A stretch of DNA of 64,000 nucleotides from Patescibacteria group bacterium (GTDB lineage Bacteria > Patescibacteriota > Patescibacteriia > UBA9570): the NCBI GenBank assembly GCA_041660305.1, contig JBAZWO010000005.1, forward strand, positions 10,247 through 74,246. The letters run 5' to 3'. Positions 4,008 to 53,925 of this stretch are shown piece after piece. The position numbers and the translations under genes were made by a program. The notes below the pieces were generated by a model that was not told the DNA's origin, did not search any database, and saw only the letters and a list, made by a program, of their open reading frames with translations. Position 1 is the stretch's first letter; each line of letters starts with the position of its first letter.

Positions 4008-4634
4008 TTATTCAAACATCTTTCCAATCCAGGAATCATCTCTATCGCTATTCCAATGTTTTGGGTTATTTAAAATGTAATTACGCACATTGTTTAATTC
4101 CGGTTCGTTACGGATAACATGATCGTAAAATCGGGATTGCCATTTAAAATCGTAATATTTTCTTTTTCGACATTCTCTGGTAACCATGCCTTTGAATTGA
4201 TTGATCATTGAACCTAATGAATGCGGTTGCCATTCTATATGATGACGCGGATTATGTGGACGTGGTCCCGTAGAGACGCCCTGCCAGGGCGTCTCTACCG
4301 TTTCATTGCAATGCGTTTCTACATTATTATGTTTCCCAATACATATTAAATGATCATGATTTTTGTTAATAATCAAAATCCCATGCACATGATCCGGCAT
4401 CACAATAAATTGATCCAATGTTACATATGGTCGTAATAATGCCGTACGATACCATTCATTATAAATAATTTTCCCAATGTTATTCACGCACATGATATTA
4501 TTTTTAATATATCCAAAACAGGCAAAACGTTTTTTGGCACAAATGGTAACAAAATACCTGCCAGATTTGGTATAATTATAATTTGGCAAACGCGTAGACA
4601 AAACGCGATATTTATCCAAAAATAAATCAAACAT
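4008..4634 (-). CDS. REP-associated tyrosine transposase (RAYT, IS200/Y1 HUH family)
   Basis: HUH motif MPDHVHGILII and C-terminal catalytic-Tyr region VRNYILNNPKHW. Single gene without IS ends. Contains GTAG palindrome copy 2 in frame (VETPWQGVST). Confidence 0.8.
   Translation of the reverse strand: MFDLFLDKYRVLSTRLPNYNYTKSGRYFVTICAKKRFACFGYIKNNIMCVNNIGKIIYNEWYRTALLRPYVTLDQFIVMPDHVHGILIINKNHDHLICIGKHNNVETHCNETVETPWQGVSTGPRPHNPRHHIEWQPHSLGSMINQFKGMVTRECRKRKYYDFKWQSRFYDHVIRNEPELNNVRNYILNNPKHWNSDRDDSWIGKMFE
4270..4298. repeat. REP-like GTAG palindrome, copy 2 (inside the RAYT gene)
   Basis: GTAGAGACGCCCTG-C-CAGGGCGTCTCTAC, 14-bp arms. Confidence 0.85.
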
Positions 4635-4773: not shown

Positions 4774-4801
4774 TTGACAAATAATAAAAAAGTGGTATAA
4801 T
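4774..4801 (+). promoter_or_regulatory. Near-consensus sigma70 promoter with extended -10
   Basis: TTGACA, 16 nt, TGgTATAAT. Confidence 0.6.
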
Positions 4802-4987
4802 GTTGGCACATTTGAAATGAAGTAACTGAAGGAAGTCTTGTTCATTACAACTAAATTTGGCAGGAAGTAGTAATACTGTGGGTGTTTTGCACACGGAATA
4901 AAAACGCATGATATATCCATATCATCGTGCTGTTTCACTCCGGGTGCATTAACCTTTCCGCAAATCCGCGGAAATGCACCCACCAAC

Positions 4988-5022
4988 AGTCGTTCAGCTG
5001 TGGCAAGCTGACGACTTTTTTT
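4988..5022 (+). terminator. Intrinsic terminator inside the 5' leader (attenuator or riboswitch expression platform)
   Basis: AGTCGTTCAGCT-gtggca-AGCTGACGACT followed by T7. It ends 5 nt before the SD AAAGGAG (5027-5033) of the 5040 CDS. Confidence 0.6.
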
Positions 5023-5039
5023 CAAGAAAGGAGCTTATA

Positions 5040-6185
5040 ATGAAGCTCAACGCCAATTCGATCGTTCGTGGTTTTTTCATGTCGCTGACTTTCCTTGCTT
5101 TGGCGGGGAATGAATCATGTCCTGGAGCCGATTCCGACATGGATGGCTATCAGGACGACGGAAATGGCGGAACTGACTGCGATGACGAGAACGCCTCTGT
5201 CTACCCTGGCGCCGTCGAGCTGTGTGATGGGCTGGACAATGACTGTGATTGGCAGGTGGATGAGGGGGTGGAATTGATCACTTTATATCCCGATGCCGAT
5301 GGCGACGGGTTTGGTGACATGTACACCACATGGACAGAGGAAGCCTGTGCCGTCCTCACCGGCTATGTCGCGGATCACACTGACTGCGATGACGCGGATG
5401 CCACCAGCTATCCCGGCGCTCCGGAGCTATGTGACGTGCTGGACAATGACTGCGACGGTTGGACCGACGAGCCGTCGGACAATGATGGCGACGGGTATAC
5501 TGGTAGCTGTAGCGGAAGCGGAGAGGACTGCAATGATGCAGATGCAGCGGTCAATCCGGAAGCGATCGAAACCTGCAATGGGGTAGACGATAACTGTGAC
5601 GGCTGGGTTGACTATGGAGTGATCGGCTACATGGATGCTGATCATGACGGGTATGGGGACGGCGATCCTATCCCGTCCGCAGTGAATTGCGGAAAACCGT
5701 TTACAGGAACCGGAAATTTCGTTTTTGTCGCGGGCGACTGCGATGACGAGTATCCTCACAGCTATCCTGGTGCCGCCGAGTTCGCCGATGGCAAGGACAA
5801 CGACTGTGATGGAGCGGTGGACGAAGACATGGACGTCGCGGACAACGACAACGACGGGCTTTCCGAAGCCCAGGGCGACTGTGTCGATACCAACTCGGCT
5901 GTTAATCCTGACGCGCAGGAAAGTTGTTACACCTATTTGGTGGATGATGATTGCGATGGTCGGGTTGATGTTGTTGATGTCTACGAAGACTTCGACAGTG
6001 ATCGCTGGGGTGGCCGGCCGCGCGGGTCAGTGGAATGCGAATACAGGTACACCGTCATATACCCTCTGGCCTCGGGGATACCTGGTGGCGACTGCAACGA
6101 CAACAACGCGGCTATCAATCCCGCGGCCACCGAAGTTGCCGATGGCAAGGACAACGACTGCGACGGCCTGATTGACGAGGAGTGA
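5040..6185 (+). CDS. Secreted Cys/Asp-rich repeat protein (MopE-type putative metal-binding motif repeats)
   Basis: Signal peptide MKLNANSIVRGFFMSLTFLALAG. Six units of DCDD-x5-PGA-x-E-x-CDG-x-DNDCDG-x-x-DE alternate with DxDxDG loops. Strong SD. 62% G+C in line 5401-5460. ATG 5040 preferred over track start 4974. Confidence 0.75.
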   Translation: MKLNANSIVRGFFMSLTFLALAGNESCPGADSDMDGYQDDGNGGTDCDDENASVYPGAVELCDGLDNDCDWQVDEGVELITLYPDADGDGFGDMYTTWTEEACAVLTGYVADHTDCDDADATSYPGAPELCDVLDNDCDGWTDEPSDNDGDGYTGSCSGSGEDCNDADAAVNPEAIETCNGVDDNCDGWVDYGVIGYMDADHDGYGDGDPIPSAVNCGKPFTGTGNFVFVAGDCDDEYPHSYPGAAEFADGKDNDCDGAVDEDMDVADNDNDGLSEAQGDCVDTNSAVNPDAQESCYTYLVDDDCDGRVDVVDVYEDFDSDRWGGRPRGSVECEYRYTVIYPLASGIPGGDCNDNNAAINPAATEVADGKDNDCDGLIDEE

Positions 6186-6366
6186 TTTTTTCCTGCCAAA
6201 TTTTCCGCTCTTTTTTCTTTATGGATGACCAATCTGCCGGCCTCAAGCCTGCGGAGCGGTTTCCAAATCTCGCCTCATGTACCTACCTTCTCGCGTAGCT
6301 CTACATCAGGCATTCTCAATATTCATCTTTTTTAAGCAAAGGTGAGTAGTGAGAATGAAAAAATAG

Positions 6367-6410
6367 AATCACAGATTACGCAGATAAAATTCATGATGTC
6401 ACAGATAAAT
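6367..6410. repeat. CACAGAT-type dispersed repeat
   Basis: aatcacagattacgcagataaaattcatgatgtcacagataaat, nearly identical to 54844-54885. Confidence 0.7.
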
Positions 6411-6587
6411 TAAATTAGTTAAATTTAATTAAATTTGTATTTATCTGCCTGCCCGCCGTACTCCGATTTAGGAGGCAGGCGGGTGTTATCAGCATTTAAT
6501 CAGTGACATCTGTGTTTCAATTGATTGACCTAGCTGATTGGAAATGTTACGATGCCTAAACTAATTAATCATTAATTTTTTATATTT

Positions 6588-7002: not shown

Positions 7003-8814
7003 ATGGAGGCGATGAACACGGCGGTAGAACAAATTAAACAGCGCTTGGATATTGTGGAATTACTCCAGGAATATTTGCGTTTAACAAAGGCGGGCACGAA
7101 CTGGAAGGCGAACTGCCCATTTCATCATGAAAAAACGCCTTCGTTTGTAGTAAGCCCCGATAAGCAAATTTGGCACTGTTTTGGCTGTGGTAAAGGGGGC
7201 GATGCGTTTACTTTTATTCAGGAAATGGAAGGAGTGGAATTTCCGGAAGCTTTGCGTTCACTAGCGCAACGCGCCAATATTACATTAGAGCAATACAAAC
7301 CAGAAGAACAAAATCATAAAACAGTATTATTGGATATTGTAAAACAAAGCCAGCTATTTTTTTCTAAAACGTTGCAGGAAGATTCGGCGGCTAAAATAGC
7401 GCGCGATTATTTACAGCAACGCGTTGTGTTACCGGCTACGCAGCAGCAATTTGGGCTAGGCTACAGTTTTAACGATTGGCGCAAATTATATCAGCACCTA
7501 CAACAAGTTGGTTATAAAGAAAATGATTTGGTAGCGGCCGGCCTGATTATTCAGGCGGAAGACAAACAATCGTACTACGATCGGTTCCGTGGCCGCTTAA
7601 TGTTTCCCATTTTCGATCATCATGGGGTAATGGTTGGTTTTACGGCACGGGTGCTAGAAGCGGATGCTACCGGCGGAAAATATGTTAATTCACCGCAATC
7701 TATTTTGTACGATAAATCTAGAATTATTTACGGTTTAAATTTTGCTAAGCAGATTATTAAAAAAGTAAACGCCACCATTGTAGTAGAGGGGAACATGGAT
7801 GTGATTACGGCGCATCAAGCGGGTTTTACGAACACGGTAGCCGTTTCTGGCACGGCATTTACCGAAGCACAAATTCAATTATTAAAACGCTATTCGCCTA
7901 ATTTGTTGCTAGCGTTCGATATGGATAAAGCCGGCTTGCAGGCGGCACAGCGTAGTATTGCCGTGGCGTTAAAATATGATATGAACGTAAAAGTAATTCA
8001 GTTGCCACCAGAATTTAAAGATCCAGATGAATGTATTAAAAAAGATCCGGCAATTTTTAGAACGGCCATTCGCGAAGCCAAGCATGTGCTTGATTTTTTC
8101 TTTGTCAGTATTACCAAACCATTAGATTTAACCCAAGCCGATCATAAAAAAAAGGCCGTGCAACAATTAATTCCGGTGTTGCGCATTATTAACGATCCGG
8201 TAGAGCGATCTCATTATGTGCAAAAGTTGGCTAATTTAGTGCAGGTAGATGAAACAATTATTCAAACTAAATTAAATACGGTAACAACAAAAAAACTAGC
8301 TAACACTAATTCAACAACAGCTAATACTATAGTGCCTGCCCAAGCGCTAGTTTTGCCAAAAAATCGTTCCGGCTTATTAGCCCAGCAAGTGCTAGCCATT
8401 ATTATTAGCCAGCCGGGCACTTGGGAATACGCCGTGCAATATTTACAGCCAGAATTTATTCAAGAGGCCAACTGGCAAGAGGTTTACAAACAAATGCTTA
8501 TTTATTATAATAACACCGGTGAATTTAATCTCACAGCTTATTTAACGGTTTATCCGCACCAGGCGGAGTTATTGCACTCCCTGGAGTTGTTGTATGCAGA
8601 TTTAACGGCTATTGCCGCGCCAGATGCAGTACAGCGAGAATTAATTCAAGGTATTAACGAGTTGCACAAACTAGATATTAAGCGGCGCTCACAACAGTTG
8701 GAGTGGCAATTAAAACAAGCCGAACAAGAACACGATACTGATTTGATTAATCAATTAATTAATACAGTTACTAATTTAAATAACGAACGTAGCCAGTTAT
8801 CTAAAGCACATTAG
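7003..8814 (+). CDS. dnaG: DNA primase DnaG
   Basis: CHC2 zinc finger CPFHHEKTPSFVVSPDKQIWHCFGCGKGGD and TOPRIM region VVEGNMDVI...FDMDKAG. Confidence 0.95.
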   Translation: MEAMNTAVEQIKQRLDIVELLQEYLRLTKAGTNWKANCPFHHEKTPSFVVSPDKQIWHCFGCGKGGDAFTFIQEMEGVEFPEALRSLAQRANITLEQYKPEEQNHKTVLLDIVKQSQLFFSKTLQEDSAAKIARDYLQQRVVLPATQQQFGLGYSFNDWRKLYQHLQQVGYKENDLVAAGLIIQAEDKQSYYDRFRGRLMFPIFDHHGVMVGFTARVLEADATGGKYVNSPQSILYDKSRIIYGLNFAKQIIKKVNATIVVEGNMDVITAHQAGFTNTVAVSGTAFTEAQIQLLKRYSPNLLLAFDMDKAGLQAAQRSIAVALKYDMNVKVIQLPPEFKDPDECIKKDPAIFRTAIREAKHVLDFFFVSITKPLDLTQADHKKKAVQQLIPVLRIINDPVERSHYVQKLANLVQVDETIIQTKLNTVTTKKLANTNSTTANTIVPAQALVLPKNRSGLLAQQVLAIIISQPGTWEYAVQYLQPEFIQEANWQEVYKQMLIYYNNTGEFNLTAYLTVYPHQAELLHSLELLYADLTAIAAPDAVQRELIQGINELHKLDIKRRSQQLEWQLKQAEQEHDTDLINQLINTVTNLNNERSQLSKAH

Positions 8815-10128: not shown

Positions 10129-10195
10129 CCTACCTCATCCCCGCCCTTCGGGCACCCCTTCTCCTCTGAGGAGAAGGGGAAGGGGGGTTGAGGTC
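10129..10195. repeat. G+C-rich nested-hairpin element (CCTCTCC/GGAGAGG family)
   Basis: cctacctcatcccc...cttctcctctgaggagaagg...ggggttgaggtcc, immediately after the rpoD stop. Confidence 0.8.
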
Positions 10196-10203
10196 CGAAT
10201 TGT

Positions 10204-11739
10204 ATGGCAATAATTAAACGTAAAATTTACTCTTTAAGTGGTCTAGCCTTACCGCCAGAAGCCACGGCTTATGGTTTAGCGCGCTACAGCCGATCAGCCG
10301 CCCCGGCTAAAGACACGTTCACTGAAATGTCTGAAAAAATTCTGAAAGGCAGTGAAGCCATGAAGAAATTTTTTGAAGTGTTTTATTTTCAGTATGGGCA
10401 TGCTTCAATTGCCGATTTGGCACATGTAGCCATGGCGCTAGAAAATATTTCTATGGTGGCGGCTATTGAAGTAGTAGACGAGCCGGTATGGGATGGGCAA
10501 GAACGCTCTACTCGTTACCAGAAATTTTCTTTAGAAGGGGTACACATTCCTACAGTAATTAAACATAAGCCGCAATTATTAAAATCGTTTCAAACAGCCA
10601 TTAAATACCAAATGGCAGAATACGAAACCCAATATAAAGAATTGCTTGAAGCCGTGCGCGTTGCTAATCCGTTACCAAATAACTATCCGGAAGGAGCTTA
10701 CAAAGCGGCCACACGCGCTCGGGCATTTGATATGACTAGATACATGTTACCACTCGGTTCGTATACCAGTGTTGGCCAAATTACTTCTGGCCGCACGTTG
10801 GAAAAAATGATTTCCCGGTTATTATCAAATGAATACAGCGAAGTACGCGAAGTAGCCGCGGATTTAAAAACTGCCTGCAATACCCCCAGCTTTAATCCGT
10901 TTACTAAAGAAATAAATACGTTATTAAAAGATATAACGAACGTTTCTACCAACGTGAAACGTTTAAAACGCATTTTAAAAACCACTGCACCAGTACCATC
11001 TTTAGTAAAATATACGGCTCCAATTAAATATTTAATTGAAACGAAAAAAGATTTACAGCAAGTAGCGCGAGAATATTTGAAAATTAAAAACATTGATTCC
11101 AGTAACGATGTAGTAGTCTATCAAAATCAAGAGCCATTGGTAGAGGCTGTTACCACATTATTATACGGCGTAACTCATTATTCTTACGGCCAAATTTCTC
11201 AACAAGTGAATAGTTGGAACCGTAAAAAATTGGCGGAAGTGTATGAAGTTGGCACCAAACGGCGCACCCGGCACGATGAATTATCTCGGGCACTTGATAC
11301 CCACAGCTTAACCTTTGATATTTTAATGGACATTGGCTCGTTTCGTGATATGCACCGTCACCGTCGCACGGTACAAGTGCGCCAAGATTATACTTATGAA
11401 CATGGCTATACCTGGCACCCGGAAATAGAACGGTACGGTAACTTGTATCCGTATCAAGTAGCTATGGATGCTATTTGTGCCACTGGTAAAAAACTAGACA
11501 AAATTAACCATGAAGCCGGGGTATACGCTATGCCGCTGGGTTGTAAAAATAGATTTTTGTTAAAAATGGGCTGGAATGAGCTGGATTATATTGGCAAATT
11601 ACGCACCGGCAAAGGCCGGCACTTATCCTATTGGAATATTGCTCTACGCATGGTAGAAGAAGCCAGTAAGCTTTGCCCAGAACGTACTAAACATATTCCT
11701 ACTACGCCGTTAGAACAGGATAGCGTTTATGAACGATAG
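10204..11739 (+). CDS. thyX: FAD-dependent thymidylate synthase ThyX, long (about 500 aa) form
   Basis: YGHASIADLAHV and the ThyX motif region FRDMHRHRRTVQ. About twice the length of minimal ThyX. Confidence 0.75.
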   Translation: MAIIKRKIYSLSGLALPPEATAYGLARYSRSAAPAKDTFTEMSEKILKGSEAMKKFFEVFYFQYGHASIADLAHVAMALENISMVAAIEVVDEPVWDGQERSTRYQKFSLEGVHIPTVIKHKPQLLKSFQTAIKYQMAEYETQYKELLEAVRVANPLPNNYPEGAYKAATRARAFDMTRYMLPLGSYTSVGQITSGRTLEKMISRLLSNEYSEVREVAADLKTACNTPSFNPFTKEINTLLKDITNVSTNVKRLKRILKTTAPVPSLVKYTAPIKYLIETKKDLQQVAREYLKIKNIDSSNDVVVYQNQEPLVEAVTTLLYGVTHYSYGQISQQVNSWNRKKLAEVYEVGTKRRTRHDELSRALDTHSLTFDILMDIGSFRDMHRHRRTVQVRQDYTYEHGYTWHPEIERYGNLYPYQVAMDAICATGKKLDKINHEAGVYAMPLGCKNRFLLKMGWNELDYIGKLRTGKGRHLSYWNIALRMVEEASKLCPERTKHIPTTPLEQDSVYER

Positions 11740-11806
11740 CCCCCTAACCCCCTAAAGGGGGAATTATTCCCTCCCGCCTTTAGGAGGGAGGGGTAGGGAG
11801 GGAGGC
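11739..11806. repeat. G+C-rich nested-hairpin element
   Basis: ccccctaaccccctaaaggggg ... ccctcccgcctttaggagggagggg, between convergent thyX and dus. Supplies the dus C-terminus (ASLPTPPS). Confidence 0.8.
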
Positions 11807-12817
11807 CTGTATTTCTCGTATAATTATCTCAACTTCTTCTAACGTATTCACCCTTACCAACTGTGCTCTATAATGTGCGGCATTAGGAATACCGCGAATG
11901 TACCAGCTTAAAATTTTTCTAATTTCATTGAAGGGATTGTAATTGGATTTTTTCTTTCTCTTTTTTTGTAGGAATCTTTTTTGTGGGAACGCGATATATC
12001 GCGTTCGTACGGATTGTTCCAATAATCGCGCATGTTCCAGCATAGTATTTAAAATTTCATCTTGTGTTGGTACATGGTAGATGCCAGTTTGCAGATAATC
12101 TTTAATTTGTTTTATTAACCAGGGTTTGCCAAAACTGCCTCTGGCTACCGCGATACCATCGCAACCAGTATAATCTAGGGTGGCTTTAGCGGCTTCGGGA
12201 GTGTGGCCGTTACCGGAGGCAATCACTAAAAAGGGAACTAGTGATTTAGCTTCTTTAATGCAATCTAAATCTGCCTGGCCTTCGTAAGGTTTTTCAAATG
12301 GGCGGCCGTGAATGGTAATAGCACTGAGTGGTAACTCGGAAATTACGTTACAAAAATCTCTTACGTGAGTAGTTTTGTAGCTTTTTCTAGTTTTTACAGA
12401 TACTGGAAATTCAGAACCAACGGCGGCAAGTACCGCTTGAATAATTTCTTTGCATAATCCCAAATCGCGCAACAAGCTACAGCCGCCGCCGCTTCTAGCC
12501 ACTTTCGGCGCCGGGCAACCAAAATTAATATCAACTCCGTCAAAACCTAATTGTTTAATGTGTTTAGCCGCTGCAAAAAAATAATCCGGTTTGGAACCAA
12601 ATAACTGCGCGATAATAGGGTGTTCATTAGCATCATAATCTAGTAGGCGAGCGGTTTTGCCTGTAGGGCAATGGTGAATGGCATCAATGGAAACAAATTC
12701 CGGAAACAGAATATCCGAAGCAAACCGTTTCATTATTAAACGATACGGTTTATCGGTTACGCCGCTCATCGGCGCCAGGTAAATGAGTGGTTTTGGTAAT
12801 TGTGTCCAAGGGTTCAT
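11780..12817 (-). CDS. dus: tRNA-dihydrouridine synthase
   Basis: LAPMSGVTDKPYRLIMKRF and INFGCPAPKVARSGGGCSLL (catalytic Cys loop). Confidence 0.9.
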   Translation of the reverse strand: MNPWTQLPKPLIYLAPMSGVTDKPYRLIMKRFASDILFPEFVSIDAIHHCPTGKTARLLDYDANEHPIIAQLFGSKPDYFFAAAKHIKQLGFDGVDINFGCPAPKVARSGGGCSLLRDLGLCKEIIQAVLAAVGSEFPVSVKTRKSYKTTHVRDFCNVISELPLSAITIHGRPFEKPYEGQADLDCIKEAKSLVPFLVIASGNGHTPEAAKATLDYTGCDGIAVARGSFGKPWLIKQIKDYLQTGIYHVPTQDEILNTMLEHARLLEQSVRTRYIAFPQKRFLQKKRKKKSNYNPFNEIRKILSWYIRGIPNAAHYRAQLVRVNTLEEVEIIIREIQASLPTPPS

Positions 12818-12822
12818 AATGG

Positions 12823-12922
12823 CCTACCTCACCCCCTACCCCCCTCTCCTCTGAGGAGAGGGGGAATAATGCGAACTTAATTCTCCCTTCTCCTTAGAGG
12901 AGAAGGGTTGGGGATGAGGTAG
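12823..12922. repeat. G+C-rich nested-hairpin element (double unit)
   Basis: cctacctcaccccctacccccctctcctctgaggagaggggg ... ctcccttctccttagaggagaagggttggggatgaggtag. Read through as the cysS C-terminal tail. Confidence 0.85.
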
Positions 12923-14311
12923 TATTTTTGGTCCATTAAGTGTATCTTCTATTTGATAACCCTTACTTTCAATTTTTCTTCGTAACATATCCGCTACCTC
13001 CCATTGTTTGGCGTCCCGTGCAATTTCGCGTTCTTCTACTAGTTGAGTAATTTCCGGCGGCACATTAGCGGCGGCACTAATCGCTTCGTGATAATAACCT
13101 TCTAAATGTAAACCTAATATTTTATCCATGGCAAATAACGTAGCTAATTTTTTTCCGCTATCTAAATGTGAGTGCAACATATTCCACATAACAGCCAACG
13201 CTTTGGGAGTATCTAAATCGTTATTTACTGCCATGGTAAAGCGTTCCATGGTTTCCGTATCAATTTCGGTAGCTTCATCGTATTCATAATCCACAATCAT
13301 GGCGCGTAAATTATTTAATGCGTTACTAGCGCCTGTTAATGCTTCGAACGTAAAATTTAATTTAGCGCGGTAATGCGCACCTAAACAAAAATAGCGATAG
13401 GCGAGCGGGTCATAACCTTTTTCTTTTAACAGGCTTATCGTTAAAAAATTGCCCTTGGATTTTCCCATGCGTTCAGCGTTGGTAAGCAAAAATTCACCAT
13501 GTAACCAATAATTAACCGTTACATGATGTAACGCACCTTCATTTTGGGCAATTTCATTAGTATGGTGTACTGGAACATGATCAATTCCACCGCAGTGAAT
13601 ATCAAAATGCTCGCCTAAGTATTTAATACTCATGGCCGAACATTCAATGTGCCAGCCAGGAAAACCTGTTTCCCACGGTGATTCCCATTCCATCAGCCGT
13701 TTAGGCTGCCCTGAGCTTGTCGAAGGGCTAAATTTCCATAAGGCAAAATCGGTAGCGTGTTTTTTTTCGCCGGTCTCAATGCGAGCACCGGCTTGCAAAC
13801 ATTTAATATCAAGTTTTGCTAGTTTACCGTAATCAGATAATTTACTAGTATCAAAATAAATCCCGTCACTAGTTTTATACGTAAAACCGTTTTGTTCTAG
13901 TTTTTTTATTAAATCAATTTGTTCTTTAATATGATCGGTAGCTTTGCACCAAATAGTCGGCGGCTGAATATTCAAATCGTGCAAATCTTGTTGGAACGCT
14001 TCCGTATAAAATTTAGCAATATCCCAAACTGATTTTTTTTCACGTTGAGCGCCTTGTTCCATTTTATCTTCGCCGCTATCGGCATCGTCAGTTAAGTGGC
14101 CAACATCGGTAATGTTCATAACATGGTTAACTGTATAACCAGCTAGTTCCAAAGTGCGCTTTAAAACATCTTCAAATAAATATGTGCGCAAATTTCCAAT
14201 ATGAGCATAATGATAAACCGTTGGCCCGCAAGTATATAAACCCACTTTATGTTCGTGGAGCGGTTTAAATAATTCCTTCTTACGAGTTAGAGTGTTGAAG
14301 AGATATAACAT
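12836..14311 (-). CDS. cysS: Cysteine--tRNA ligase
   Basis: HIGN ([12 protein letters not shown]), KMSKS variant RMGKSKGN, and PGWHIECS. The last roughly 27 aa are repeat-derived. Contains a 21-nt in-frame palindromic insert. Confidence 0.95.
13708..13728. repeat. 21-nt palindromic insert inside cysS
   Basis: GCCCTgagcttgtcgaAGGGC encodes STSSGQP between the conserved DFALWK and WESPW blocks. Confidence 0.6.
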
Positions 14312-14333
14312 AGTAATATTTTACACTATTTCT

Positions 14334-14356
14334 CGTGGATAAACCAGTTATCCACA
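14334..14356. promoter_or_regulatory. Inverted pair of DnaA-box-like 9-mers upstream of cysS
   Basis: CGTGGATAA-accag-TTATCCACA. The second half is the perfect E. coli-type DnaA box. Confidence 0.3.
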
Positions 14357-14384
14357 GATCTAGCCAAAAATATGATAAATCTAT

Positions 14385-14412
14385 TTGACGTTTTTTTTGA
14401 GCCAGTTATAAT
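14385..14412 (+). promoter_or_regulatory. Sigma70-type promoter of an orphan small transcript
   Basis: TTGACG, 16 nt, TATAAT. Confidence 0.5.
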
Positions 14413-14418
14413 GGCCAC

Positions 14419-14604
14419 AAAGCAAAGTTATGAATCACTCCCAAGCTCACAATTTTAGCCTCGTATCCGTGTTAAAACACACCCCACGTTGTTTTGTTAT
14501 TAATTATTATACACAACGCGGATTGAGACTAAACCCTGCCCACTAGCCTAAGTTAACCTGAAAACCAAAACAAGTCCCAATCCGCCAAACTAGGCGGATT
14601 TTTT
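14419..14604 (+). ncRNA. Candidate small RNA of about 185 nt, unknown family
   Basis: Bounded by the promoter above and the intrinsic terminator AATCCGCC-aaacta-GGCGGATT plus T4-5 (14579-14604). Only a 38-codon SD-less ORF inside. Confidence 0.35.
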
Positions 14605-14657
14605 CTACCTCTCCCTCTGTCCCTCCCCTATTAGGGGAGGGATGAAGGGTGGGGTAG
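14605..14657. repeat. G+C-rich nested-hairpin element
   Basis: ctacctctccctctgtccctcccctattaggggagggatgaagggtggggtag. Confidence 0.8.
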
Positions 14658-14740
14658 AACACTCCTCAACTAGCTCTTTACAACTAGGTAACGTAAGCAC
14701 TCACGTTTTTAAGCTTCGTTTTAATGTATTAAAACATGAA

Positions 14741-14828
14741 GCCGGGAATGGAAAAGATATTATCAACCGGTAGAGACGCCCCGCCGGGGCGTCTCTACAA
14801 AAACTATAATATCTGTTCCATTCCCGGC
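14741..14828. repeat. 88-nt composite hairpin tipped by REP-like GTAG palindrome copy 3 (14770-14798)
   Basis: GCCGGGAATGGAA / TTCCATTCCCGGC (13 bp), GATATTAT / ATAATATC (8 bp), then GTAGAGACGCCCCG-C-CGGGGCGTCTCTAC. Confidence 0.85.
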
Positions 14829-14888
14829 TCGTGGTATGAGCTGAGACTCCCCAGGCCGCCTCTGCGGCCGCTGTTAGAGGTGGTTAGT

Positions 14889-15104
14889 ATGCCAGGATTT
14901 GAACGAAGTACAGAAGCAAGGGCACGGAAGCTAGAGGATGTTTTTCCATGGAGGTCCAGCCAGATAGAGGGACTCCTGGACAGCTGCTCATCCGACGAGC
15001 AGTTAGTACGTGCTCTGGACAAGATCCAGGAAGAAGAGGACAGCGGGGCTCAAGAAAAGGGTGGGAGGGATCTTCGTCGCAGAAGCGATGAAGCTAGGCT
15101 GTAA
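14889..15104 (+). CDS. Small acidic hypothetical protein S1 (71 aa), G+C-rich, SD-led
   Basis: SD GAGGTGG (14877-14883) 5 nt before the ATG. 57% G+C in line 14941-15000. No homology recognised. Track ORF start 14736 lies inside the hairpin and is rejected. Confidence 0.35.
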   Translation: MPGFERSTEARARKLEDVFPWRSSQIEGLLDSCSSDEQLVRALDKIQEEEDSGAQEKGGRDLRRRSDEARL

Positions 15105-15209
15105 TAGGCCAGGAGGATGTGGAGGCAGGCTCCATGTGTGATGAGTGGTCGCAAGACTGTTCAACGCTGGGTATCCCGTCTTCATCTTTTCGCTTACGTT
15201 ACCCACCTT

Positions 15210-15240
15210 CTTCTGTTGATAATACACTTATCAACAGAAG
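15210..15240. other. Perfect 13-bp hairpin made of two DnaA-box-like half sites
   Basis: CTTCTGTTGATAA-tacac-TTATCAACAGAAG. Confidence 0.7.
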
Positions 15241-15380
15241 CTCGGTGGAGCAATTTGACACTTTTTTTACAAGCAGTACAATACTTTCACATGCAACATA
15301 CCCGCGTAATCATTAGCAACATTATTATTAGCCACCTGGTGGTTAGGTAGTTGTTGCACGCGAAATCTTGCAGCACTCTA

Positions 15381-15407
15381 GCCACCTTACCGGTGGCGTT
15401 TTTGTTT
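15381..15407 (+). terminator. Intrinsic terminator
   Basis: GCCACC-ttacc-GGTGGC followed by GTTTTTGTTT. Confidence 0.5.
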
Positions 15408-15424
15408 ATACAGGCTCTTTACAA

Positions 15425-15568
15425 TTCACCACTCTCGCTGTGTGTTGATTTGACCCTTCCCCCTGACCCCCTTCCCTGCAAGGCAGGGGGAAAATTAATT
15501 AATTATTCCCTCCCTCTTGCAGGAGGGAGGGTTAGGGTGGAAGGTCACTACACAGCGAGAGTGGTGAA
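15425..15568. repeat. 144-nt composite hairpin: 19-bp perfect outer inverted repeat around a G+C-rich nested-hairpin element
   Basis: TTCACCACTCTCGCTGTGT (15425-15443) pairs with ACACAGCGAGAGTGGTGAA (15550-15568). The interior matches the CCTCCC/GGGAGG family. Confidence 0.85.
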
Positions 15569-15595
15569 AAAAACGTTATCTTTTAGGAGGTCTCT

Positions 15596-15793
15596 ATGGA
15601 CACGGATTTGCAAAAAAAAATTAACGAATTATCTGGTAATTTTTTTGAGCTGAGGACTATGTCCTCAGCGTGTCTTCATGGTATTTCGCATGACGATGCT
15701 CGGTATACACCGAGCTATCGTGAATGTGCTGTAGCGGTAAAGGAGCTTAGGCTACAACTCGAAGCGCAGTCGATGGCCGATTGCCCCCTATAA
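15596..15793 (+). CDS. Small hypothetical protein S2 (65 aa), SD-led
   Basis: AGGAGG (15585-15590) 5 nt before the ATG. Followed by an 8-bp-closed hairpin, CAGGCACG...CGTGCCTG (15818-15856). No homology recognised. Confidence 0.45.
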   Translation: MDTDLQKKINELSGNFFELRTMSSACLHGISHDDARYTPSYRECAVAVKELRLQLEAQSMADCPL

Positions 15794-16003
15794 GGAGTCC
15801 GCTCGTTTTTTCGGAGACAGGCACGGGTATGATTTCACAATCATTACTCGTGCCTGCTCTCCACCCTCTTCTATTTCTTAACCAATTAGGCTAAATATTA
15901 CGTTATCATACTTTTCAACTGGCTTCATTTTTAATAATAATATAAAAGGAAAAGTAAGTTTTTGTTCTTTTCAAAATTAGCATCGATCTTTACATTATAT
16001 TCT

Positions 16004-16071
16004 CAGAGATTCGGGGTAAGAAAATAAGTTTATCATGCTTGATTAATTTATTTTGCTACCCCTAATCTCTG
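16004..16071. other. 68-nt hairpin upstream of S3
   Basis: CAGAGATTCGGGGTA pairs with TACCCCTAATCTCTG: 15-bp arms with one mismatch and a 38-nt AT-rich loop. Confidence 0.75.
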
Positions 16072-16122
16072 GAATTCACTAGAGAAGGGGTGATAATCTC
16101 CCGCATAGATAGGAGGCTAGAT

Positions 16123-16326
16123 ATGTGGGGAGGAAAAGATTTTTTGAAAAGCATTTCGGAAGAGGAAAGGGCCGTGCGGTATAATCGCACGGCCACGACC
16201 TCGGCCACGACCTCGGCCACGACCTCGGCCACGACCTCGGCCACGACCTCGGCCACGACCTCGGCCACGACCTCGGCCAAATCCGTTCCGGTGATCCCGT
16301 TGAGGGATCGATACCCAGGGATTTAG
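16123..16326 (+). CDS. Small repeat protein S3 (67 aa) with (ATTS)x7 core
   Basis: AGGAGG (16111-16116) 6 nt before the ATG. MWGGKDFLKSISEEERAVRYNRT-(ATTS)7-AKSVPVIPLRDRYPGI. A strong terminator follows. ATG 16123 preferred over GTG 16090. Confidence 0.5.
   Translation: MWGGKDFLKSISEEERAVRYNRTATTSATTSATTSATTSATTSATTSATTSAKSVPVIPLRDRYPGI
16191..16279. repeat. Perfect tandem repeat, 12 bp x 7.4
   Basis: GGCCACGACCTC repeated seven times without any mismatch, plus GGCCA. Preceded by the 9-bp hairpin GGCCGTGCG-gtataat-CGCACGGCC (16170-16194). Confidence 0.95.
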
Positions 16327-16329
16327 TTA

Positions 16330-16377
16330 GAGGACGAGTAGTTCGCTTAACGCGATGCTACTCGTCCTCATTTTTTT
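16330..16377 (+). terminator. Strong intrinsic terminator
   Basis: GAGGACGAGTAG ... CTACTCGTCCTC (12 bp), then A and T7. Confidence 0.8.
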
Positions 16378-16466
16378 AAAAAAAATAAACAGCACCATTT
16401 TTGGCCAAATACAGGTAATTATGTTAATCTTATAAATAATCAATTATTAATAAAAGCATTAATTTT

Positions 16467-16507
16467 CCCCCTCTCCTTTGAGGAGAGGGGGCTAGGGGGT
16501 GAGGTAG
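16467..16507. repeat. G+C-rich nested-hairpin element
   Basis: ccccctctcctttgaggagagggggctagggggtgaggtag. It abuts the ATG at 16509. Confidence 0.8.
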
Positions 16508-16508
16508 T

Positions 16509-19133
16509 ATGACCACAACACAATCATTTAAAAAATTACAACAACAATTACAGCGCCAATCTTATTTAGTGGCGGAGCATACGCAGCGAGCTCGTACCAT
16601 GATTATTTTGCCAGGTTTTTCATTGGATCCTCAGGAAATTGCTAAGTTAAAAGGCGCAGAATATTACGAAGAGCGGCTGCTTTATTTTATTGGGTATTTA
16701 CGAGATCCACAAACTAAGATTATTTTTGTAAGTTCTCGGCAAATTGATCCGGTAATTTTAGATTATTATTTTGATTTGTTTAGCAGTAATAAATCAGAGC
16801 GTAACAGCATGAAACAACATTGGCAGCATGTGTATGTGGGCAACGCCAAAACGCACCGGACGTTAACCGAAAAAGTATTACGGTCTCAGCGCTTATGTAA
16901 CCAAATTTTGCAACATATTACCGATAAAAAACTAGCCGTGATTCGGTGTTTTAATGTATCAGCTTCAGAAAAAGCACTGGCCGTAAAATTAAATATTCCA
17001 CTATTTGCTTCCGATCCAGATTTATTGGTATTGGGTTCAAAATCTGGTAGCCGAGCCATTTTTAAACAAGCTAAATTAGCTATACCAGTCGGCCGTGAAA
17101 ATATCTATAATTTTAATCAATTAATTTTGGCTATACAAAATATTAAAAAACAATATGCCAAAACTGAACAAGTTGTTTTAAAATATAATTATAGTTTTTC
17201 TGGAGTAGGCAATGCCATGTTAACAGTAAAAAAATGGCCGCGCGGCCAAGTAGCCACCGAGCAGTATATTAAAAAACATTTACGACCAAATGATAACACT
17301 GAAACGATTACAAATTATTTGGCCAAGTTTTTTCAGCTCGGCGGTATTGTAGAAGCTTGGTTAATAGGCGATGAAGTATTATCGCCTAGTGTACAAGTGC
17401 TGGTGTTGCCAAATAAAACCGTGGAATTGGTTTCAACTCACGAGCAAATTTTAGACGCAGTTACTAAACAGTTATATTTAGGAGCGCGTTTTCCAGCGCG
17501 TGATATTGTACACGCTGAAATATTGCGCCAGGCTAAGTTAATTGGCCAGCAAATGGCCAAACAAGAGGTGATTGGGCCATTTGGTATAGATTTTATTGCG
17601 GTAGAACAACATAAGCGGTGGCGGGCATTTCCAGTGGAAATTAATTTACGCAAAGGCGGTACCACGCATCCATTTCGAACAGTGCAGTTATTAAGTAATG
17701 GTCGGCAAGATGCTACCGGGCAATTATGTGATAAGCAAAAACAGCCGATTTATTATTGTGCGTATGATAATATTGTGTCTAATCAGTATAAAAAATTAGA
17801 GCCAGAACAATTAATTAAGTTAGTGCAGCATAGTGGCTTAGCCTACGATCCAGCTACCAATGTGGGAGTAACCTTGCATTTATTGGGGCCGTTAAAAAAA
17901 TATGGTAAATTTGGCGCTATTTGTATTGCGCACACAGCCACATCGGCTGAGCAGTTATTTTTGTTATTAAAACGAGCGGTGGATCGTTATGTGTTAGATC
18001 AATCAGTTTTAGAACAACAAACCAAAGTGGCTACGCTTTCTAAAGTAAATACTAATCGGCTAATTAAAAATTTTATTGAACTAGCTAAAATCGCTAGTCC
18101 ATCCGGTGAAGAACGGGTAATGGCCGAACGGATGCGCGAGCTATTAGTCCAAGCTGGGGCTAAGGTGCGCATCGATCAACGCGAAAACGTGATTGCTAAA
18201 ATAGATGGCACGGGAGCTTTTAGTGAGGCGGATCCTATTTTAATTTCCGCGCATTTAGATACCATTCATCCGGGTGTAAACATTCAACCGGTAGTGCGGG
18301 GTGATGTAATTATGAGTGACGGTACCACTATTTTAGGTGCTGATGATAAAGTAGCGCTCGCGTATATTGTAGAATTATTAAGAATTTTACAGGAACAAAA
18401 AATTACGCATCGACCGATAGAAATAATTTGTTCAGTGTGTGAAGAGCAATTTGCCCAAGGGGTAAAAGAGGTTGATTTTTCAAAAATAAAGGCACCGGTA
18501 GCGATTGTGTTAGATGGTGCTAGAATTGGTGAAATTGATGTATCTAGCCCATATATTGCCGATATTGTGGTGGAGGTAATTGGCAAAGCAGCCCATTCTG
18601 GTGTAGAGCCAGAGCGTGGAATTAGCGCCATTCAAATAGCGGCGCTAGCCATAGCAAAAATGAAATTAGGCAAAGTAGATGCCAGAACTACAGCTAATAT
18701 TGGTATTATTACCGGTGGAAAAAATCGTAACGTAATACCACCACAGGTTATTTTGGAAGGAGAAGTACGTGGTTTTTTAAAACAGCGTTTAGAAGAACAG
18801 CTAGAACACATGGAAAAAATGTTGCGCGATGCGGCGGAACATTTTGGTGGATTGTTATCGTTGCAAAACAAGCTTATTTTAGAAGGGTATCAAATTTCAG
18901 AACACGATCCAGATTTGTTGCGTCTAATGATGCTCATGAAACAAGTGCATATTCCAGCTAGATTACGGCAAACTAATGGCGCTTCAGATGCTAATATTAT
19001 GATGACGCGAGGTATTAAAGCGTTTGACATTGGTATTGGTGTACATCATCCTCATACTATCGAAGAACATGTGTATATTGCGGACATGGTAAAAATGGTA
19101 GAGCTGTTATTATTGCTGGTGACAAAAAAATAA
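16509..19133 (+). CDS. Fusion protein: N-terminal ATP-grasp-type carboxylate-amine/peptide ligase and C-terminal M20 (PepT-like) metallopeptidase
   Basis: The N-terminal ~500 aa (ILPGFSLDPQEIAKLKGAEYYEERLLYFIGYLRDPQTKIIFVSSRQIDPVILDYY) resembles, from memory, PGM1-related ATP-grasp ligases. The C-terminal ~370 aa carries SAHLDTIHPG, GADDKVALAYIVELL and HHPHTIEEHV, typical of M20 peptidases. Confidence 0.6.
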   Translation: MTTTQSFKKLQQQLQRQSYLVAEHTQRARTMIILPGFSLDPQEIAKLKGAEYYEERLLYFIGYLRDPQTKIIFVSSRQIDPVILDYYFDLFSSNKSERNSMKQHWQHVYVGNAKTHRTLTEKVLRSQRLCNQILQHITDKKLAVIRCFNVSASEKALAVKLNIPLFASDPDLLVLGSKSGSRAIFKQAKLAIPVGRENIYNFNQLILAIQNIKKQYAKTEQVVLKYNYSFSGVGNAMLTVKKWPRGQVATEQYIKKHLRPNDNTETITNYLAKFFQLGGIVEAWLIGDEVLSPSVQVLVLPNKTVELVSTHEQILDAVTKQLYLGARFPARDIVHAEILRQAKLIGQQMAKQEVIGPFGIDFIAVEQHKRWRAFPVEINLRKGGTTHPFRTVQLLSNGRQDATGQLCDKQKQPIYYCAYDNIVSNQYKKLEPEQLIKLVQHSGLAYDPATNVGVTLHLLGPLKKYGKFGAICIAHTATSAEQLFLLLKRAVDRYVLDQSVLEQQTKVATLSKVNTNRLIKNFIELAKIASPSGEERVMAERMRELLVQAGAKVRIDQRENVIAKIDGTGAFSEADPILISAHLDTIHPGVNIQPVVRGDVIMSDGTTILGADDKVALAYIVELLRILQEQKITHRPIEIICSVCEEQFAQGVKEVDFSKIKAPVAIVLDGARIGEIDVSSPYIADIVVEVIGKAAHSGVEPERGISAIQIAALAIAKMKLGKVDARTTANIGIITGGKNRNVIPPQVILEGEVRGFLKQRLEEQLEHMEKMLRDAAEHFGGLLSLQNKLILEGYQISEHDPDLLRLMMLMKQVHIPARLRQTNGASDANIMMTRGIKAFDIGIGVHHPHTIEEHVYIADMVKMVELLLLLVTKK

Positions 19134-20366: not shown

Positions 20367-20795
20367 ATGCCAACAATTCAACAGTTAATTCGAAAACCAC
20401 GCCGGAAAGTTTCTACTAAATCTAAAGTTCCAGCATTACTAACCAATTTTAATGCTTTAAAGCGTCGGCGCAAAGCCATGGCTAAAGGTAACCCATTAAA
20501 GCGTGGTGTATGCACTAAGGTAACTACTACTACTCCAAAAAAACCAAACTCAGCGTTGCGGAAAATTGCTCGGGTTCGTTTATCCAATGGTATGGAAGTT
20601 ACCGCTTATATTCCCGGTGAAGGCCATAATTTACAAGAACACTCCATTGTATTAATTCGGGGTGGTAGAGTACATGATTTGCCTGGTGTGCGTTATCATA
20701 TTGTACGCGGTGTATACGATACCGCCGGAGTAGAGGGGCGCAAAGTCGGCCGTTCAGTATACGGAGTTAAAAAAGATAAATCAGCTAAGAAATAA
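20367..20795 (+). CDS. rpsL: 30S ribosomal protein S12
   Basis: [14 protein letters not shown] ... [18 protein letters not shown]. Confidence 0.97.
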
Positions 20796-46558: not shown

Positions 46559-46663
46559 GCTACCTCTCCCCCTAACCCCCTCTCCTAATAGGAGAGGGGG
46601 AATAATCTAATTGCATTACTCCCTTTCCCCTGGTTAGGGGAAAGGGCTGGGGATAGAGGTAGG
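46559..46663. repeat. G+C-rich nested-hairpin element (double unit)
   Basis: ctacctctccccctaaccccctctcctaataggagaggggg ... ctccctttcccctggttaggggaaagggctggggatagaggtagg. Confidence 0.85.
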
Positions 46664-46695
46664 ACGTTTAGGGGGCTAGGAATCGAGATCGAAAT

Positions 46696-48408: not shown

Positions 48409-48492
48409 CCTACCTCTCCCTCTTTCCCTCCCCTATTAGGGGAGGGATGTCCGCCTGCCTGCCGGACAGGCAGGAAGGACAGGGATAGGTAG
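48409..48492. repeat. G+C-rich nested-hairpin element
   Basis: cctacctctccctctttccctcccctattaggggaggg ... ccgcctgcctgccggacaggcaggaagg ... agggataggtag. Confidence 0.85.
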
Positions 48493-52944: not shown

Positions 52945-53916
52945 ATGAAATTAATTGTCACTATTCCGTGTTATAACGAAGAGCAAAATATTGCAGCAGT
53001 AATTAAAGAAATTCCGCGTAATATTATTGGTGTTGATCAAGTAGAGGTATTAATCATTAACGATGGCTCTACAGATAATACAGTAATTACCGCCAAACAA
53101 GCCGGAGCGGATTATATTATTTCTCATAAACGCAATATTGGTTTAGCGCGGTCGTTTCAACAAGCCTTGTGGGAAGCTGTTAGTAGAGGAGCTGATATTA
53201 TTGTTAATACCGATGGTGATAATCACTACGATCAATCTAAAATTAGCGAGCTGATTCAGCCGATTTTACAACAACAAGCCGATATTGTAATTGGTTCACG
53301 CCAAGATTTGCAAACTAAAAATCGCTGGCTAAATCGCTTTGGCAGTTTTGTAATGACAAAATGGGCCGGCTTGCCAAAATATGATGTATCTACCGGTTTT
53401 CGAGCTTATAATAAAGAAGCTGCCTTGCGCTTAGGAGTGTATTCTACGCATACTTATGTGCACACTACGTTATTATCCGCTCAAGATATTGGTTTAACCA
53501 CTGTGGAATTACAGATTGCGGATCGGCCAGTAGAGCGGCCATCACGGTTAATTAAAAATGTACCACAGCATATTTGGCTGGCTGGTTGGAATATTGTACG
53601 CAATATTATTATTTTTCATCCATTACGGTTTTTTGGCTCGATTGGTATTTTTTTAGCGCTGGCTGGTGCATTACCGGTGTTACGGTTTTTCTATTTTTAT
53701 TTTATTACTGGCGATGGTAATGGTCATTTACAATCTTTGATTATCGGTACTATGTTGGTGTTGTTAGGGTATATTAATTTAGTATTGGGTTTATTAGGCT
53801 CATCCATTGGCTGGCACCGTAAAGTAACGGAAGAAACGTTGTATCGAGTTAAGAAAATGGAACTTGCGCTACCTCACCCCCAACCCCTCTCCTCAAAGGA
53901 GAGGGGAGGAATTTAG
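52945..53916 (+). CDS. Glycosyltransferase family 2 with C-terminal TM helices
   Basis: IVTIPCYNEEQNI ... NTDGDNHYD. The C-terminal LPHPQPLSSKERGGI is repeat-derived. Confidence 0.85.
   Translation: MKLIVTIPCYNEEQNIAAVIKEIPRNIIGVDQVEVLIINDGSTDNTVITAKQAGADYIISHKRNIGLARSFQQALWEAVSRGADIIVNTDGDNHYDQSKISELIQPILQQQADIVIGSRQDLQTKNRWLNRFGSFVMTKWAGLPKYDVSTGFRAYNKEAALRLGVYSTHTYVHTTLLSAQDIGLTTVELQIADRPVERPSRLIKNVPQHIWLAGWNIVRNIIIFHPLRFFGSIGIFLALAGALPVLRFFYFYFITGDGNGHLQSLIIGTMLVLLGYINLVLGLLGSSIGWHRKVTEETLYRVKKMELALPHPQPLSSKERGGI
53869..53910. repeat. G+C-rich nested-hairpin element
   Basis: ctacctcacccccaacccctctcctcaaaggagaggggagg, translated as the C-terminus of 52945..53916. Confidence 0.8.
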
Positions 53917-53925
53917 CATTGATTT

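Follow-up and report, generated by a model that had tools for sequence, protein, structure and literature searches.

What occupies the interval of about 2.2 kb between cysS and the gene for an ATP-grasp/M20 fusion protein in the genome of a Patescibacteria group bacterium (GenBank assembly GCA_041660305.1, contig JBAZWO010000005.1)? The stretch of this contig analyzed here, 64,000 nucleotides long, is called the window, and the interval spans its positions 14312–16508. The deposited annotation has a single call between the two genes, a hypothetical protein of 122 amino acids. Such regions are overlooked because standard annotation leaves these 2.2 kb nearly empty. The original prediction, made from the sequence alone, saw here three tandem modules of one architecture, each with a long hairpin, a strong Shine–Dalgarno (SD) site, a small open reading frame (ORF; S1, S2, and S3) and a terminator. 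They were considered to be either a foreign or mobile array of small-protein cassettes or a set of structured RNAs with embedded micro-ORFs. The explanation favored here, to which we give about an even chance, is that the interval is an attenuator-gated hot spot of acquired small-protein genes. It would be a composite accessory region, at a locus that accumulates small foreign genes across the lineage, upstream of the fusion gene, whose ATP-grasp part is PGM1-like.

The positions of the predicted hairpins, SD sites, ORFs, and terminators were reproduced with the sequence, the ORF list, a repeat finder, and folding. The shift in G+C was confirmed as well: it is 45% for the interval and 47.5% for 14741–16377 against 38% for the whole window, with peaks of 54–61% in 200-nt windows within the interval and 75% in the 12-nt repeat unit inside S3. 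Three things had not been noticed, the presence of two putative leader-peptide attenuators, the origin of the hairpin cores from REP-like and MITE-like repeats, and the unequal status of the three modules. An assembly chimera, named earlier as a possible refutation, is rejected because independent assemblies contain the identical region. It is 100% identical in an assembly of the European Nucleotide Archive (ENA) and in two Logan assemblies of other samples, the S3 repeat excepted. The sole difference of the ENA contig is 60 nt in this repeat, which is shorter by five 12-nt in-frame units.

Two units in the interval, A (14385–14606) and B (15255–15403), are best read as ribosome-mediated transcription attenuators. 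Each contains a promoter-like site, a short leader ORF, and a predicted intrinsic terminator (Table 1). In unit A, the 3' part of the leader, GCGGATTG (14518–14525), can pair with the 5' arm of the terminator. In unit B, the 5' arm CTAGCCACC of the terminator has an alternative partner in the last leader codons, GGTGGTTAG (15340–15348), with which it would make an antiterminator. In constrained folding of unit B, the antiterminator forms when the first 44 nt are masked, as by a stalled ribosome, and the terminator forms when the masking extends through the stop codon. The terminator at 15381–15407, which had been assigned to the S1 module, is part of this separate unit, so the three modules do not share one architecture.

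Unit B (15254–15424) shares 82% identity with a sequence that precedes the orthologous ATP-grasp/M20 gene in the relative L006 (loci and assemblies other than the window are given L numbers). The adjoining gene itself is less conserved, with 65% nucleotide and 61% amino-acid identity. The two leaders differ at four nucleotides, and three of the four changes are synonymous. Because the ATG lies 8 nt after the −10 box, the mRNA of unit B is probably leaderless. The B-type switch is seen in constrained folding of the window, L007, and L008, and the leaders of L007 and L008 are non-homologous and rich in isoleucine, leucine, and valine. The A-type switch is likewise seen in silico in the window, L007, and L012. 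The units of these two relatives are positional counterparts of unit A with the same switch logic, and L008 has an ORF and a terminator there. Isoleucine makes up 5 of the 19 residues of leader B (P = 0.013), and isoleucine, leucine, and valine together make up 9 (P = 0.03). For unit B the signal sensed could be branched-chain amino acids; a general translation stress is another candidate. Scans of viral and metagenome contigs with the leader-B pattern gave chance matches within unrelated coding sequence.

The two units resemble the leader-peptide attenuators of enterobacteria (trp, his, leu, ilvGMEDA, and pheA), in which a short ORF also precedes an intrinsic terminator and the alternative antiterminator depends on the position of the ribosome, as it does here in silico. 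Leader B shares with them runs of Ile and Val codons. They differ in several respects. No Rfam leader family matches the units above its gathering score, and the only matches are weak ones to Phe_leader and Trp_leader. The leader mRNA is apparently leaderless here. Known attenuators have four segments, whereas the units of L007 and L008 have three. Finally, known attenuators precede a biosynthetic operon, while these units precede orphan mini-genes.

In the scheme proposed, transcription, translation, attenuation, the role of the hairpins, and horizontal acquisition are all deduced from the sequence. The 3' end of each leader ORF would be one arm of the antiterminator, the other arm of which overlaps the terminator stem. 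A ribosome at the stop codon would cover the leader arm, and the terminator would form. A ribosome stalled earlier, in unit B likely at the Ile/Val-rich codons, would free this arm and let RNA polymerase read through. Read-through would enter the cassettes of hairpin, SD site, and ORF, S1 after unit A, and S2 and S3 after unit B. As internal cistrons, S1–S3 would depend on their SD sites, unlike the host genes of the window. The long stem-loops between the cistrons, which are partly selfish palindromes, probably insulate the transcript as terminators, 3' stabilizers, or RNase processing sites. S1–S3 would be real small proteins that evolve fast and are foreign in composition. The older, conserved unit would be S2 together with its two stem-loops, and S1 and S3 would have been added later.

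The SD sites of the cassettes contrast with the host genes. Among the large host ORFs of the window, 43 of 46 lack an SD core 3–11 nt before the start codon. A −10 box with at least five of six matches ends 3–14 nt before the start in 36% of host genes, compared with 12% at random positions. Since SD cores are rare and −10 boxes lie close to the starts, many host mRNAs look leaderless or SD-less (examples are the starts of 12836–14311 on the minus strand and those at 20367, 21445, 26658, and 33109), and the window suggests largely leaderless or SD-less translation initiation. Leader B fits this leaderless pattern. The sequence AGGAGG occurs 10 times in the 64 kb, and four of these copies are inside the interval. 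Because host genes are SD-less, the perfect AGGAGG sequences of S2, S3, and a MopE-repeat gene stand out. The distance between the SD site and ATG is 5–6 nt in S1, S2, and S3. The SD site of S1 could be sequestered by CCGCCTCT (14856–14863).

The MopE-repeat gene (5041–6185, 56% G+C) has an SD site, encodes a secreted protein, and belongs to a second G+C-rich island at 4775–6300. It is preceded by a strong promoter-like site (4775–4802), a structured leader, and an intrinsic terminator (about 4985–5020). The hairpins of this leader are of the GGGTGCATT...AATGCACCC type, as in an L012 cassette, and the gene is followed by CCTACCTTCTC. The leader could be a riboswitch or an attenuator, and the same cassette style could be present at another locus.

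Is the organization of the interval seen elsewhere? Ten loci with an orthologue of the ATP-grasp/M20 gene, 46–61% identical, were compared, the closest relative in the searched collections being 61% identical. In eight of the ten, same-strand ORFs of 36–213 aa are present within 0.4–3.4 kb upstream of the orthologue, with AGGAGG-type SD sites, raised G+C, and no Pfam or NCBIfam family. Correctly spaced SD sites precede about 15 of these cassette ORFs. L019 has a weak candidate only, and L020 has none. The cassette ORFs of L007, L008, L012, and L013 show the pattern GC1>GC2<<GC3 for G+C at the three codon positions, with GC3 of 0.75–0.91 against 0.22–0.45 for the neighboring host gene. Such a pattern marks genuine coding sequence that stems from a high-G+C background. 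Paralogous neighbors exist within arrays (cassettes c2 and c3 of L008, c1 and c2 of L012), and all-against-all BLASTP of 18 cassette ORFs revealed only three related pairs and no common motif. The presence of arrays before the same enzyme gene in most of these distant relatives suggests a recurrent landing site for new small genes. A metagenome scan with the ATP-grasp protein returned nothing.

The neighborhood of the arrays varies. In L007, L008, L012, L013, L019, and L020, the array is usually flanked by the ATP-grasp/M20 gene on one side and by an operon for aromatic amino-acid biosynthesis (aro genes, pheA, tyrA, and chorismate mutase) on the other. The left neighbor in the window is the divergent cysS. 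Because cysS replaces the aromatic operon seen in most relatives, the left flank is considered to be rearranged in the window. Other G+C-rich islands whose ORFs have no Pfam family are found near the ATP-grasp gene at L007 14301–17101, L012 12301–14901, L013 5501–6651, and L014 16751–17451. The end of the L012 island, ATTACGTTCCTCGCCCTCTCC, resembles the 3' boundary of a cassette.

The three modules proposed originally are of unequal status, as only module 2 is kept in the nearest relatives. Both L006 and L010 have the outer stem of hairpin 2, with a single compensatory change. The closing hairpin of this module likewise shows compensatory changes in L010, where its identity is 77%, and L011 has it too. 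Between the outer stem and the closing hairpin of L010 lies a homologue of S2, as in the window. The two proteins are 41% identical over 41 aa (E 3e-6 to 8e-8), and the match was found by tblastx and not by blastn. Similarity at the protein level only is as expected of coding sequence. L006 is without modules 1 and 3, and L010 is without module 3, which marks modules 1 and 3 as additions specific to the lineage. They share the style of the cassettes seen at the loci of other relatives.

The three ORFs can be graded from sequence features. G+C at codon positions 1, 2, and 3 is 0.64/0.46/0.50 in S1 and 0.53/0.39/0.42 in S2, which is a coding shape; GC3 of the host is 0.31. From the single sequence of S2, AlphaFold predicts a helix-loop-helix (pLDDT 72). 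A real gene is very probable for S2 and probable for S1. S3 is uncertain as a gene, and its composition is dominated by its own repeat, 7.5 copies of the 12-nt unit CGGCCACGACCT (16190–16279), which encodes TTSA. In the independent assembly L001 (5742–5771) the repeat has 2.5 copies. The difference stays in frame, and it is either a real contraction or expansion or a collapse of short reads. Among 5.8 billion proteins, S1 and S2 found only themselves. Pfam, PHROGs, and NCBIfam gave nothing significant for S1–S3 and 10 cassette ORFs of relatives. A match of S3 to MUCL1 is due to low complexity. A HMMER scan of 1.84 billion representatives with S2 returned multi-repeat proteins only, and their summed scores were judged to be chance; one of them, P0137, shares the motif RYTPxYRE with S2. 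Searches of phages, plasmids, and PDB with the region, cassette c1 of L008, and cassette c3 of L012 found no match other than a REP-like palindrome in one plasmid.

Table 1. Features of the interval between cysS and the ATP-grasp/M20 gene. Positions are those of the window; z, fold z-score, comparing the energy of a hairpin with those of shuffled sequences.
Feature	Position	Strand	Remarks
Promoter-like site of unit A, TTGACG-16-TATAAT (11/12)	14385–14412	+	Promoter scan
Leader ORF of unit A, 38 aa, MNHSQAHNFSLVSVLKHTPRCFVINYYTQRGLRLNPAH	14430–14546	+	ORF list, folding
Predicted intrinsic terminator of unit A	14579–14606	+	Terminator prediction, folding
PLS monomer	14603–14659		97.5% identical to 48410–48449
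Motif CTCTTTACAA	14674–14683	+	Further copies at 15415 and, as TCTTTACA, at 15987; a long hairpin lies downstream of every copy
Left arm GGTAACGTAAGC of the 12-bp perfect inverted repeat flanking the S1 cassette	14687–14698	+	
Hairpin 1	about 14740–14829	+	−59.9 kcal/mol, z −12.0
S1, 71 aa, SD GAGGTGG (14877–14883)	14889–15104	+	ORF list; orphan
Right arm GCTTACGTTACC (15192–15203), then CCACCTTCTTC motif	15192–15214	+	
13-bp perfect hairpin after the S1 cassette	15210–15240	+	z −8.2
Promoter-like site of unit B, TTGACA-16-TACAAT (11/12)	15255–15282	+	Promoter scan; conserved in L006
Leader ORF of unit B, 19 aa, MQHTRVIISNIIISHLVVR	15291–15350	+	ATG 8 nt past the −10 box
Predicted terminator of unit B	about 15378–15407 including T-run	+	5' arm CTAGCCACC
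Hairpin 2	15425–15568	+	−97.9 kcal/mol, z −12.2; closing inverted repeat of 19 bp, perfect
S2, 65 aa, SD AGGAGG (15585–15590)	15596–15793	+	L010 has a homologue at the equivalent position
Closing hairpin of module 2, then CTCCACCCTCTTC	about 15813–15869	+	z −9.6
Hairpin 3	16004–16071	+	−32.6 kcal/mol, z −7.9; A+T-rich; unique in the window
S3, 67 aa, SD AGGAGG (16111–16116)	16123–16326	+	ORF list
Strong predicted intrinsic terminator after S3	about 16330–16377	+	T7 tail, z −7.9
Half PLS element	16463–16507		Abuts the ATG of the ATP-grasp/M20 gene (GGGGGTGAGGTAGTATG)

How could such cassettes have been gathered at one locus? Seven of them, S1 and cassettes in L007, L008, and L012, bear flanking inverted repeats GGnAACGnnA...TnnCGTTnCC, whose relative positions are also the same. 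The arms covary by cassette: both sides have changed in 8 of the 12 pairs, and pairing holds in 92.8% of cells. None of 500 shuffles reaches this covariation, and slid controls are 34–52% paired. The partner of an arm is the opposite end of the same cassette, not the neighboring cassette. There is no G-U pair in these repeats, which hints at a symmetry at the DNA level. The right arm is followed by CCACCTYT, and the 17-mer TTACGTTACCCACCTTC at this boundary is identical in the window and L012. Another motif, (A)GYTCTTTACA, is found after attenuator terminators and before cassette hairpins (L006 610; L007 8613 and 9331; L012 5757 and 7356). On inspection it was rejected as a sigma-70 −35 box, as it has no consistent −10 partner.

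These frames could be considered as the mark of an integron-like platform, in which each unit of hairpin, SD site, and ORF would be a mobile cassette bounded by its own inverted repeat and moved by site-specific or hairpin-dependent recombination. This would extend the attenuator-gated hot spot and does not exclude it. Like integron arrays and clusters of attC sites lacking integron-integrases (CALINs), the arrays consist of co-oriented, mostly promoterless orphan small ORFs of varied origin and deviant composition with imperfect palindromes between them, here at the same locus in relatives with 46–61% identity of the flanking gene. The cassette content also varies among relatives, L006 and L010 differing from the window. 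The covarying repeats, the 17-mer common to the window and L012, and the presence of REP-like hairpins together with a Y1 (RAYT-like) transposase gene are compatible with this platform.

On the other side, no integrase, recombinase, or transposase family, IntI included, was found among the called genes within 6–10 kb of any array, and the rest of the 64-kb window was only partly scanned. No attI was found at the arrays, and by inspection the hairpins and flanking repeats lack the attC R''/R' cores RYYYAAC and GTTRRRY. No second genomic copy was found, and no cassette is seen twice or in a second context. S2 and S3 have no flanking repeat. The inverted repeats were located by eye, so that the covariation statistic is biased upward by ascertainment. 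Scans of viral and metagenome contigs for the 17-mer boundary gave chance matches in unrelated coding sequence only. An integron attC follows the ORF as one site, whereas the covarying repeats here flank each ORF; the cassettes here carry their own SD sites and some their own terminators; and the array lies between attenuators and a housekeeping-type gene. An integron-like platform is considered unlikely. Of the two alternatives put forward in the original prediction, the cassette array is the better one, by the SD sites, the G+C shift with coding codon phase, the S2 homologue, and the arrays of relatives, although its mobility is only deduced.

What are the long hairpins? Two dispersed palindromic repeat families, a REP-like palindrome and the PLS element, are spread across the window, and copies of them make up the cores of hairpins 1 and 2. 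The apex of hairpin 1 (14770–14798) is the REP-like palindrome GTAGAGACGCC..GGCGTCTCTAC, and its outer arms have no repeat copy elsewhere in the window. Designs of the hairpin-1 type precede cassettes in L008 (about 7040–7120) and L012 (about 5815–5895). Hairpin 2 consists of a conserved outer stem (15425–15448 with 15545–15568) around one dimeric PLS element of about 100 nt (15451–15547), which is MITE-like. As REP-like and PLS copies are nested inside other stems, much of the strong hairpin signal comes from selfish repeats.

The PLS element is a C-rich/G-rich palindrome with a monomer of about 45 nt and a dimer of about 100 nt, and at least 12 copies are in the window. Copies end just ahead of start codons and supply a GAGG-type purine tract at 10155–10203, 11770–11800, 12840–12907, 16463–16508, 46576–46695, and 53884–53925. 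The genes with a copy at their start are the thyX-like gene at 10204, Dus (11780–12817, minus strand), the ATP-grasp gene at 16509, and the genes at 46696 and 53926. Copies also code for the C-terminal 25–30 residues of CysS. The PLS element may act as a portable ribosome-binding site or a coding extension. In these respects it is similar to the Correia/NEMIS elements of Neisseria and the RPE elements of Rickettsia, which are also of about 100 nt with terminal inverted repeats, form a long hairpin in transcripts, lie near start codons, and can extend coding regions, as at the C-terminus of CysS here. RNase III processing and promoter activity are known for Correia elements. A candidate third MITE-like family is made of A+T-rich long palindromes (CACAGAT.../...ATCTGTG; CACTGATGCCACTGATAA...) at 6380–6520 of the window and at 60–175 of L011.

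The REP-like palindrome GTAGAGACGCS...SGCGTCTCTAC has three copies in 64 kb (966–989, 4272–4296, and 14770–14798). It also tips the hairpins leading cassettes in L008 and L012, and it is present in a Manganitrophus plasmid. A RAYT-like ORF is at 4008–4634 on the minus strand. It matches REP_Tyr_transpos (NCBIfam NF047646) with E 4e-13 and 49 bits, below the curated cut-off of 80, and weakly Y1_Tnp of Pfam (E 0.002). The copy at 4272–4296 is not beside this ORF but interrupts its reading frame. REP/REPIN systems with RAYT (PMC3116915, PMC3337134) likewise combine a short G+C-rich dispersed palindrome, found here at the tips of longer hairpins, with a Y1 RAYT-like gene, which is in the same window here. 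They differ in that only three copies occur in 64 kb, the RAYT match is below the cut-off, and the ORF is interrupted by the palindrome.

If the hairpins were functional non-coding RNAs, the ORFs could be incidental open frames in G+C-rich sequence. This agrees with the very strong z-scores of the folds, with the orphan status of S1 and S3, and with the overlap of ORFs on the two strands in the S1 region. Module 2 fits too, its stem-loops (77–100% nucleotide identity) being more conserved than S2 (41% amino-acid identity). The repeat-element palindromes account for most of the hairpin signal, though, and a correctly spaced SD site stands before every ORF despite the rarity of AGGAGG. The codon-phase G+C is of the coding type, and S2 and its L010 homologue are alike only as proteins. 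The Rfam scan of the region detected no family even at E up to 10 except spurious miRNA-hairpin models; MIR5380 and other miRNAs with high scores merely mirror long hairpins. Only two tRNA genes passed the gathering threshold, one in L014 and the other in a different part of the window, and no tRNA or tmRNA was found either in the region or in the relatives' arrays. A set of structured RNAs with embedded micro-ORFs is not supported as the primary explanation, the greater conservation of the module 2 stem-loops notwithstanding, and we regard it as improbable.

A few RNA-like motifs occur in the cassettes. A sequence like a tRNA T-arm, GGGTTCGATTCCCC, is found at L007 8825–8856 in a cassette frame that seems ORF-poor, and weaker versions, GGATTCCCC and GACTCCCC, are at the equivalent spot of other cassette 5' regions. 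ARAGORN calls no tRNA at the T-arm-like GGTTCGATTCCCC of L007. Pairing of the conserved 5'-UTR motif of the GGATTCCCC type with a 3' element was also considered, and no consistent complementarity was found.

The neighboring enzyme suggests another role for the small ORFs. They could encode precursor or carrier peptides that would be extended by the PGM1-like ATP-grasp ligase and trimmed by the fused M20 peptidase, in the manner of peptides made on the ribosome and modified after translation (RiPPs) or of amino-group carriers. The small ORFs consistently adjoin the fusion gene across relatives. The ATP-grasp half matches PGM1_C and BesA-type ligases, and for the M20 half a distant similarity to [LysW]-lysine hydrolase was detected (E 6e-8, well short of the cut-off). 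PGM1 of the pheganomycin system joins a ribosomal core peptide to an amino acid, and in PGM1-type systems a ligase of this family likewise adjoins small ribosomally made peptides (PMC8939145), which are only predicted here. The small ORFs here differ from such peptides in being motif-less and foreign in composition, which is unexpected for a co-evolving substrate, and the ligase is fused to an M20 peptidase among housekeeping genes. Precursors of RiPPs and graspetides share a leader or core recognition motif. The 18 cassette ORFs compared by BLASTP have no motif in common, be it in a leader, in a core, or at the C-terminus; their lengths span 36–213 aa, and most of them have no relation to one another. 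L020 has no candidate and L019 a weak one, and a strong terminator parts S3 from the enzyme gene. As the ORFs share no motif, a substrate relationship is conceivable but not supported, and it is judged very improbable.

Decaying gene remnants and selfish repeats without current function, as the orphan ORFs and the richness in REP-like and MITE-like repeats might suggest, are the least credible explanation and extremely improbable, because SD sites, start codons, and terminators are intact, codon phase is of the coding type, the same organization is seen in most relatives, and both unit B and the module 2 stem-loops clearly exceed the neighboring gene in conservation.

Several observations weigh against the attenuator-gated hot spot of acquired genes. 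In unit B of L006, the simulated stalled state keeps the terminator. The enrichment of isoleucine in leader B is modest, and that of isoleucine, leucine, and valine together is only marginal, in the other B leaders as well, and absent in the A leaders. The leader peptides of L007 and L008, being hydrophobic, might rather be small membrane peptides. GC3 is raised only modestly above the host value in S1 and S2. S1 has no homologue among the 5.8 billion proteins, and neither S1 nor S3 matches a family. Exact look-up of 10 cassette proteins found five as singletons at 90% identity and five absent from the collection. No donor of the G+C-rich ORFs was found, so that composition is the whole of the argument for their foreign origin. 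Host start codons were set by the longest-ORF rule, which may undercount host SD sites. Because of the strong terminator after S3, the ATP-grasp gene is not simply the last gene of the transcript.

None of the parts of this hot spot is new in kind, as leader-peptide attenuators, REP/RAYT-like and MITE-like repeats, and horizontally acquired orphan genes are all known. What is new to us is how they are combined: high-G+C SD-led mini-genes in covarying frames, placed behind attenuators, at a single conserved locus in a lineage that is A+T-rich and SD-less. It can be speculated that the locus represents an undescribed platform for cassette capture without an integron integrase. High-G+C SD-led genes, each in a covarying repeat with a repeat-derived hairpin, would be placed behind ribosome-stalling sensors upstream of one conserved gene. 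We hold this to be distinctly unlikely. In a bolder form of this speculation, the cassettes would have been taken from, or tuned for expression in, a G+C-rich partner of these presumed episymbionts.

Should the attenuators prove real, they would be candidates for ribosome-mediated attenuation on apparently leaderless mRNAs, in an uncultured and poorly studied lineage that has SD-less genes in this window. If the recurrent landing pad is true, the locus would offer a compact and testable case of how reduced genomes gain and express new small proteins, and the arriving mini-genes would be G+C-rich and SD-led. Selfish palindromic repeats would then have been recruited as parts of transcripts.

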